Assembly (NCBI RefSeq): GCF_003334355.1
Contig: NZ_QOWP01000021.1
DNA: 64,000 nucleotides
Direction: 5' to 3' (one strand)
Origin: Escherichia coli
Lineage (GTDB): Bacteria; Pseudomonadota; Gammaproteobacteria; Enterobacterales; Enterobacteriaceae
Shown: positions 31,700 through 31,920 of the stretch, one piece after another
Position numbering within the stretch: the stretch's first letter is position 1
How the letters are laid out: every line of letters starts with the position of its first letter
The notes under the pieces: model-generated
What the model saw: the letters and a program-made list of their open reading frames with translations, nothing else
Database searches by the model: none
What the model was told of the DNA's origin: nothing
Translations under genes and position numbers: made by a program

Positions 31700-31920
31700 C
31701 TGTTGAATACTACTGAAGAGTGGTGAATAGTTGTGAGGAACAATAATGAAATAATCATTCGGAATAAAAATTCCACTTTTGATGAAAAAAAATCATAAAT
31801 CACGCTACCTTCCGATGAACACTCATGAACAGTCACTGAATACTGCCTTGTCAACCCTTCACCTCTTAACTAGCTGTATTATCAATTTTTTTATCAAAGT
31901 GAACAGTAGTGAATAGTATT
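31700..31920. repeat. Cluster of TGAA(T/C)A(G/C)T-type repeats in the divergent control region between alpA and sid-like genes
   Basis: tgaatact 31704, gtgaatag 31723, tgaacact 31816, tgaacagt 31827, tgaatact 31837, gtgaacagt 31899, gtgaatagt 31909. Confidence 0.35.

Follow-up and report, generated by a model that had tools for sequence, protein, structure and literature searches.

An iteron array between vis/alpA and sid as the probable replication origin of a P4-like satellite prophage in Escherichia coli

Introduction

What is the function of the short TGAA(T/C)A-type repeats that crowd the divergent control region between an alpA gene and a sid-like gene in the chromosome of Escherichia coli? 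A preliminary description of this stretch of 64,000 nucleotides (hereafter the window), which was made from the sequence alone, considered them as replication iterons or as regulator or immunity sites of a satellite related to phage P4. P4-like satellites are found in almost half of the E. coli genomes (PMC8628076). The surveys of these elements, as far as they were searched, describe genes only, and the term crr does not occur in PMC8628076. For P4 itself, the passages of PMC4234260 citing Ziegelin & Lanka 1995 and Yeo et al. 2002 describe that the winged-helix domain of the alpha protein binds the origin repeats, which is followed by unwinding and priming; the binding of origin repeats, unwinding and priming by alpha are also stated in PMC2777425. 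The comparison with P4 and its relatives presented here indicates that the array at 31704-31917 is very probably the ori for the vegetative or plasmid replication of a P4-like satellite prophage, with the region 27294-27414 as its crr.

Results

The element at ssrA

The window belongs to the E. coli chromosome. Many complete E. coli genomes match its 901-bp spacer at 99.9% identity, near-identical copies (at least 99% identity) are present in 29 E. coli genomes, and RefSeq has no annotation under it in the E. coli genomes checked. The tmRNA gene ssrA (39566-39928, minus strand) is adjoined by a tyrosine integrase gene (38182-39381, minus strand), and the distal att site is marked by an imperfect, partial copy of the 3' end of ssrA (about 27129-27158). 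Furthermore, one copy each of the 23-nt direct repeat GTATACCTAA(G/A)CGTATACCAATA is situated close to the two element ends (27210-27232 and 39433-39455), probably marking integrase arm sites. The integrase, the ssrA 3' copy and the 23-nt repeats together thus delimit an element of about 12.4 kb, which is a P4-like satellite prophage inserted at ssrA. On its left side it is flanked by a ypjA/ehaD autotransporter gene (22274-26977, plus strand), while the pheA leader (57686-57811) and the RyfD sRNA (61117-61255) further along correspond to the usual ssrA neighbourhood of E. coli, where the strain K-12 presumably carries CP4-57.

From crr to the 5' region of vis/ORF88 the window (27294-31238) is collinear with P4 (4471-9108) at 70.7% DNA identity, and the layout of the element follows P4 in the order crr, alpha, cnr-like gene, CI RNA, vis/alpA, ori and sid (Table 1). 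The element also carries psu, a zinc-finger gene of the Ogr/Delta type, the two Hachiman genes, a gene for a 152-aa product and the integrase gene, and the core satellite genes are all intact. The DUF5375 gene is a homologue of ORF106 of P4, which we take to be cnr, the copy-number regulator. The cnr family is situated between epsilon and alpha in 90% of the P4-like elements (PMC8628076). A gene for a 75-aa protein (30124-30351, minus strand; phrog_10110) separates the cnr-like gene from the immunity region; its family is reported to occur in 61% of P4-like satellites and to be absent from P4. Collectively, the element resembles the P4-like satellites of Enterobacterales (Moura de Sousa & Rocha 2021, PMC8628076; Rousset et al. 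2022, PMC9122126) in the set and order of int, psu, delta, sid, alpA and alpha and in its size of about 12 kb, in the presence of the cnr and 75-aa families between the immunity region and alpha, and in a defence hotspot by cos, which is here occupied by Hachiman.

Table 1. Positions of the features assigned in and around the satellite origin; P4 coordinates refer to GenBank X51522.
Feature	Position	Strand	Basis and remarks
One crr unit (cis replication region)	27294-27414	+	Aligns with both 120-bp crr repeats of P4; nhmmer 103 bits, one unit only
Terminator-like hairpin CCCGGC-ATCA-GCCGGG plus T-run, between alpha stop codon and crr	27420-27445	-	Read from the sequence; position matches the t-alpha terminator of P4
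alpha gene (primase, SF3 helicase, origin-binding protein)	27456-29840	-	74% identity to P4 alpha; Pfam; PDB 1KA8
ORF106/DUF5375 homologue, presumed Cnr	29804-30127	-	phrog_5991; RefSeq: DUF5375 family protein
Immunity region: C4/CI-type RNA (30594-30681), isrK (30750-30827), c4-a1b1-like target (30788-30840)	30594-30840	-	Rfam; a1b1 just below threshold
vis/alpA homologue, counterpart of P4 ORF88	30899-31159	-	phrog_2790, excisionase/regulator; collinear with P4 ORF88
Clade-specific upstream iteron cluster: TGAATACT (31704), TGAAGAGT (31714), TGAATAGT (31724), then invariant GTGAGGA (31733)	31704-31740	+	All in 10-bp phase
Putative ori iterons 1-3, direct: TGAACACT, TGAACAGT, TGAATACT	31816-31844	+	Align with P4 type 1 repeats 9310-9338; 10 and 11 bp spacing in both
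Inverted iteron, degenerate: ACCCTTCACC on plus, GGTGAAGGGT on minus strand (octamer GGTGAAGG, 31856-31863)	31854-31863	-	Aligns with the inverted P4 type 1 repeat TTGTTCACC, 9353-9360
Conserved AT-rich block TTAAC..CTGTATTA..T-run between inverted iteron and last pair	31864-31897	.	Homologous to P4 9361-9395
Putative ori iterons 4-5, direct: AGTGAACAGT, AGTGAATAGT	31898-31917	+	10 bp spacing; align with P4 type 1 repeats 9396-9413
TGT-N12-ACA box, Delta/Ogr activator site type, upstream of sid	31983-32000	+	-91 from the sid ATG, -90 in P4; separate from the iterons
sid-like capsid size determination gene	32073-32825	+	phrog_6165; gene order sid, psu, delta

The Hachiman system (34076-37601), with HamA of 313 aa (E=1.7e-135) and HamB of 860 aa (E=0), is located in the psu/delta-int hotspot. 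Rousset et al. 2022 (PMC9122126) have characterized the psu-int hotspot of P4-like satellites as a reservoir for anti-phage systems. A search of the window with the P4 cos sequence, used as an approximate query, gave no match with up to three mismatches. Between the delta gene and Hachiman, a cos-like G+C-rich stretch was found (33855-33885, GGCAGGCGGGCGGGGCAGCGCAC), which is similar to, though diverged from, the P4 cos end GGCGAGGCGGGGAAAGCAC.

Copy number and unit of the repeats

The motif scan revealed seven exact copies of TGAAYAST, all on the plus strand, at 31704, 31724, 31816, 31826, 31837, 31900 and 31910, four of which carry T in place of C (TGAATA). Together with the degenerate direct copy TGAAGAGT at 31714 and the inverted copy, this agrees with the preliminary description, which had counted seven or more motif copies within about 220 bp between alpA and the sid-like gene. 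In the window as a whole the motif shows only a mild excess (13 matches vs 7 expected); within the satellite (about 27.1-39.6 kb), all matches fall in the array or in the cluster assigned to crr. The local clustering is far stronger. The enrichment test against shuffled sequence that had been proposed beforehand gave a clear outcome: not one of 20,000 dinucleotide-preserving shuffles of 31690-31925 reached seven copies (mean 0.09, maximum 3), shuffling of the whole 881-bp intergenic region likewise never yielded seven, and a Poisson estimate from the window-wide background amounts to P of about 5e-16. Moreover, Tandem Repeats Finder reported only three arrays between 27000 and 32100, all with a period of 10 (31714-31736, 31815-31844, 31898-31918). 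The G+C content of the array region is 32%. The iteron unit comprises 8-10 nt, phased by 10-11 bp, with (G)GTGAACAGT as family consensus. Hence, the repeats are of the TGAA(T/C)A type as initially described, while the term heptamer falls short of the conserved unit.

Alignment with the ori of P4

In the P4 record (GenBank X51522), the interval from ORF88 to sid bears six annotated ori type 1 repeats (9310-9413). An alignment of the array with the P4 ori had also been suggested beforehand, and it matched the annotated type 1 repeats one to one. The direct trio at 9312, 9322 and 9333 of P4 corresponds to 31816, 31826 and 31837 in the window, the inverted iteron at 9353 to 31856, the P4 block TTAACTTACTGTATTAC plus T-run to TTAACTAGCTGTATTATCAATTTTTTT of the window, and the last pair at 9398 and 9408 to 31900 and 31910. 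Hence, both sequences display three direct iterons, one inverted iteron, an AT-rich block and two direct iterons, column by column in the same order and orientation and with the same 10/11/10 bp phasing. The location is shared as well: the array lies between the vis gene and the start of sid at 32073, as the P4 repeats lie between 9030 and 9583, and the iterons are found at -258 to -164 relative to the sid start in the window vs -271 to -175 in P4. The core TGAAYA(G)T is common to the type 1 iterons of P4 (TGTTCACC or GGTGAACA) and those of the window, and TGAACAGT occurs as iteron core in both.

Some differences from P4 were also recorded. Most ori iterons of the window are without the two G residues that open the P4 octamer GGTGAACA (5' GG), four of the seven exact copies read TGAATA, iteron 1 ends in C instead of G, and the inverted copy has the form GGTGAAGG. 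Variants with TGAATA and TGAAG also occur among the annotated type 1 repeats of the P4 crr. Furthermore, the window has an additional phased cluster of three to four copies about 110 bp upstream (31704-31740), the type 2 repeats of P4 have no counterpart in the window, and the spacer between vis and sid measures 914 bp compared to 552 bp in P4. With the final C of iteron 1 and the weak inverted copy, the putative origin could be weaker than that of P4.

The putative crr cluster beyond alpha

The preliminary description had noticed the GTGAACA/TGTTCAC core again at the distal end of the element, and it is indeed present there: TGTTCAC at 27317-27323 and 27326-27332 (minus sense), GTGAACA at 27388-27394 (plus) and, directly before the latter, the GGTGAAG variant GGTGAAGA at 27380-27387 (plus). 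In P4, crr (4291-4590) consists of two 120-bp repeats that bear ori type 1 repeats and adjoin the alpha terminator and 3' end. The alignment with the P4 crr, another of the proposed checks, matched 27294-27414 to the 120-bp unit, including TTGTTCACACTGTTCAC and GGTGAAG.GTGAACA followed by the alpha terminator hairpin. Like the P4 crr, the cluster thus forms a unit of about 120 bp with iterons in both orientations directly past the alpha terminator. The nhmmer search did not find two tandem 120-bp repeats as in P4; the window has one unit.

Conservation in the P4-like family

Eighty IMG/VR loci encoding an alpha homologue were searched with an ori-core HMM and a crr HMM. The ori core was found upstream of alpha in 79 of the 80 loci, representing 73 distinct cores, the consensus of which reads TGAACAG-N3-TGAACAGt-N3-TGAAcA, inverted AAC..TTCACC, TTAACttaCTGTATTA, T-run and aGTGAAcAGTaGTGAAtAGT. 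The iteron offsets are fixed at -86/-76/-65, -47 (inverted) and 0/+10. Among the 73 cores, the iteron columns contain 1.78 bits of information vs 1.00 in the other columns (Mann-Whitney p=6e-12), and the last pair, iterons 4-5, is the best conserved part. The non-iteron columns 31866-31892 exceed 1.5 bits and are as conserved as the iterons. Such conservation goes beyond what would be required for unwinding of AT-rich DNA alone, and the block may comprise a start site or a site for a host factor. E. coli relatives taken from complete genomes gave the same picture. The origin architecture of P4 is therefore conserved across P4-like satellites.

The crr unit is situated about 45 bp past the alpha stop codon in most loci. 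A single unit is the commonest state among the relatives, with about 9 of the 80 loci having two tandem units as P4, hence the duplication is a feature of P4 and not of the family. In some relatives, i.e. L005/L006 (E. coli O55:H7, O157:H7), L029, L032-33, L038, L040, L042, L051, L063, L069, L074 and L076, an extra gene is inserted between the alpha stop codon and crr, so that crr is 1.1-2.1 kb away from alpha, compared with the usual distance of about 45 bp. The alpha-crr gap may represent a second small insertion hotspot.

Clade-specific features

The upstream cluster, at offsets -196/-186/-176, is conserved among the relatives with a long spacer; it is restricted to loci whose alpha is at least 83% identical to that of the window and is absent from P4 and the P4-proper clade. 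In the clade of the window defined by this alpha identity, which also includes the E. coli loci L005-L009, the spacer between vis and sid is about 900 bp long vs about 550 bp in P4, and the core trio has for the most part lost the 5' GG of the P4 octamer. The members of the clade retain the same iteron variants, with about 75% identity in the flanks. Some clade members, the window not among them, have degenerate third and inverted iterons.

The iteron arrays are separated from the 5' region of vis/alpA by about 460 bp of DNA (31239-31700) that is AT-rich and specific to the clade, and that brings the spacer between vis and sid to its length of about 900 bp. This segment contains no ORF longer than 45 aa and none that is conserved with the O55:H7 relative, has no Rfam match, and did not exceed shuffled sequences in a promoter and terminator scan. 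It was suspected to be a simple insertion relative to P4, which the comparison did not bear out, and it has no significant similarity to P4 9109-9300.

The initiator protein

The alpha protein of the window is 74% identical to P4 alpha across 773 residues. Its ORF is of full length and comprises the Pfam domains Zn_Ribbon_Prim, Toprim_3, D5_N, DUF5906 and Pox_D5; RefSeq relatives begin 17 codons downstream of the first ATG of the window ORF. Residues 688-787 match PDB 1KA8, the origin-binding domain of P4 (E=1.6e-48), hence a cognate alpha with C-terminal winged-helix origin-binding domain is encoded in cis to the array. Among the relatives, the last 110 residues representing this domain are 77-100% identical. 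The idea that diverged iterons track a diverged DNA-binding domain was not supported, because the domains of the window and of locus L008 are identical though their core iterons differ. As the origin-binding domain is not diverging in step with the iterons, a change of specificity is unlikely.

Discussion

The question of what the repeats are can be answered with good confidence from the homology to P4. The reading as replication iterons, which the preliminary description had listed among its possibilities, is borne out by the alignments to the P4 ori and crr and by the neighbouring alpha homologue with its origin-binding domain. In more general terms, the array resembles the iteron origins of theta plasmids and phages, which likewise have direct repeats at the helical period beside an AT-rich block and an initiator from the same element. 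Unlike theta-type Rep proteins, which recruit DnaB and DnaG, the P4-type initiator is a single protein uniting primase, SF3 helicase and winged-helix domain, and in contrast to iteron origins in general, P4-type replication requires crr as a second distant cis element. By analogy to P4, the following sequence of events can be proposed. After derepression or excision, the C-terminal winged-helix domain of alpha would bind the iterons of ori and crr, with the core TGAAYA(G/C)T and the family consensus GGTGAACAGT as its target. The SF3 helicase of alpha would then open the AT-rich block at 31864-31897, which is the presumed site of DNA unwinding or priming, the Toprim primase domain would make primers, and the host polymerase would replicate the circle. 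The crr iterons would be needed in cis, presumably joined to ori by bound alpha, and the DUF5375/ORF106 homologue upstream of alpha probably tunes the copy number. The prophage may replicate autonomously rarely or never.

Other explanations for the array were weighed against its role as an origin. A cluster of TGAAYAST arising by chance in AT-rich intergenic DNA might be suspected from the low G+C content of the region and the little raised window-wide count, but this has a negligible probability, given that local shuffles never went beyond three copies, that the exact copies all share one strand and the 10-11 bp phase, and that the iteron positions are conserved over 73 distinct relatives; the shuffles and the conservation of the relatives' ori cores exclude a chance origin. 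It is also quite unlikely that the array represents a P4 origin that has decayed within a cryptic prophage and lost its function. Its iterons do deviate from the family consensus by the loss of the 5' GG, the TGAATA variants and the weak inverted copy, and many P4-like elements are known to be without one or more core components (PMC8628076). However, the alpha ORF is of full length with every domain present, the core satellite genes are intact, the same iteron variants recur across the clade, with flanks about 75% identical, the origin-binding domain is identical or nearly so in relatives, and the near-identical copies (99% identity or more) that 29 E. coli genomes carry also speak against decay.

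The preliminary description had moreover offered regulator or immunity sites, and neither found support. Operator or activator sites (Delta/Ogr, Vis/AlpA) for divergent late promoters between alpA and sid, instead of replication iterons, would suit the position in the divergent control region from vis/alpA to sid. Since the ori of P4 is flanked by the late promoters PLL and Psid, some regulatory overlap is conceivable. Yet, TGT-N12-ACA dyads of the Delta/Ogr type were detected only outside the array, namely the box upstream of sid, which keeps the sid distance of P4 and sits in a block conserved among relatives, and a second dyad at 32021-32038. Furthermore, the motif recurs at crr past the alpha stop codon, where there is no promoter to regulate, and the array itself is homologous to P4 repeats annotated as ori type 1, making the regulatory role very improbable. 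A canonical TGT-N12-ACA box at the place of the P4 PLL box was not found in the window. Finally, the repeats could be targets of RNA-based immunity, as in the pairing of P4 seqA/seqC with CI RNA, considering that P4-type immunity uses short repeats in the left operon leader and that this satellite encodes a C4/CI-type RNA. Against this stands the position of the immunity elements: Rfam places the C4/CI RNA, isrK and the a1b1 target about 0.9-1.3 kb from the array and downstream of vis/alpA, while the array is upstream of vis, and within 31700-31920 no RNA family matched even at E<=1. The array thus lies apart from the CI/C4 RNA region, and an identity as immunity targets, excluded by the position of the RNAs, deserves hardly any credence.

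The assignment of the array as P4-type ori concerns a well-known kind of element; the finding is ordinary and adds little new biology. It provides exact positions for ori and crr in DNA that is without RefSeq annotation in the E. coli genomes checked, and it documents, by computation only, the iteron architecture across the P4-like family. Because this architecture is conserved, the ori core plus the crr unit provide a simple DNA signature, which could serve to delimit satellites and to gauge their ability to replicate, and which could help in the design of cosmids or delivery vectors based on P4. A small lead on origin variation between satellites comes from the additional iteron cluster that is specific to the clade. 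One might speculate that the clade has remodelled the P4 origin by the additional TGAATA-type cluster and relaxed third and inverted iterons, possibly towards a distinct replicon or incompatibility variant or another mode of alpha loading that lets two satellites share a cell, but we consider this rather doubtful.

A side observation concerns the annotation of the immunity region. In relatives, an ORF of 183 aa (30348-30899, minus strand) is listed by RefSeq as 'Icd-like cell division inhibitor'; it overlaps the C4/CI RNA and isrK on the same strand, and this annotation may be partly spurious. The old 'cI protein' ORF of P4 likewise covers the region corresponding to the C4/CI RNA and isrK matches.
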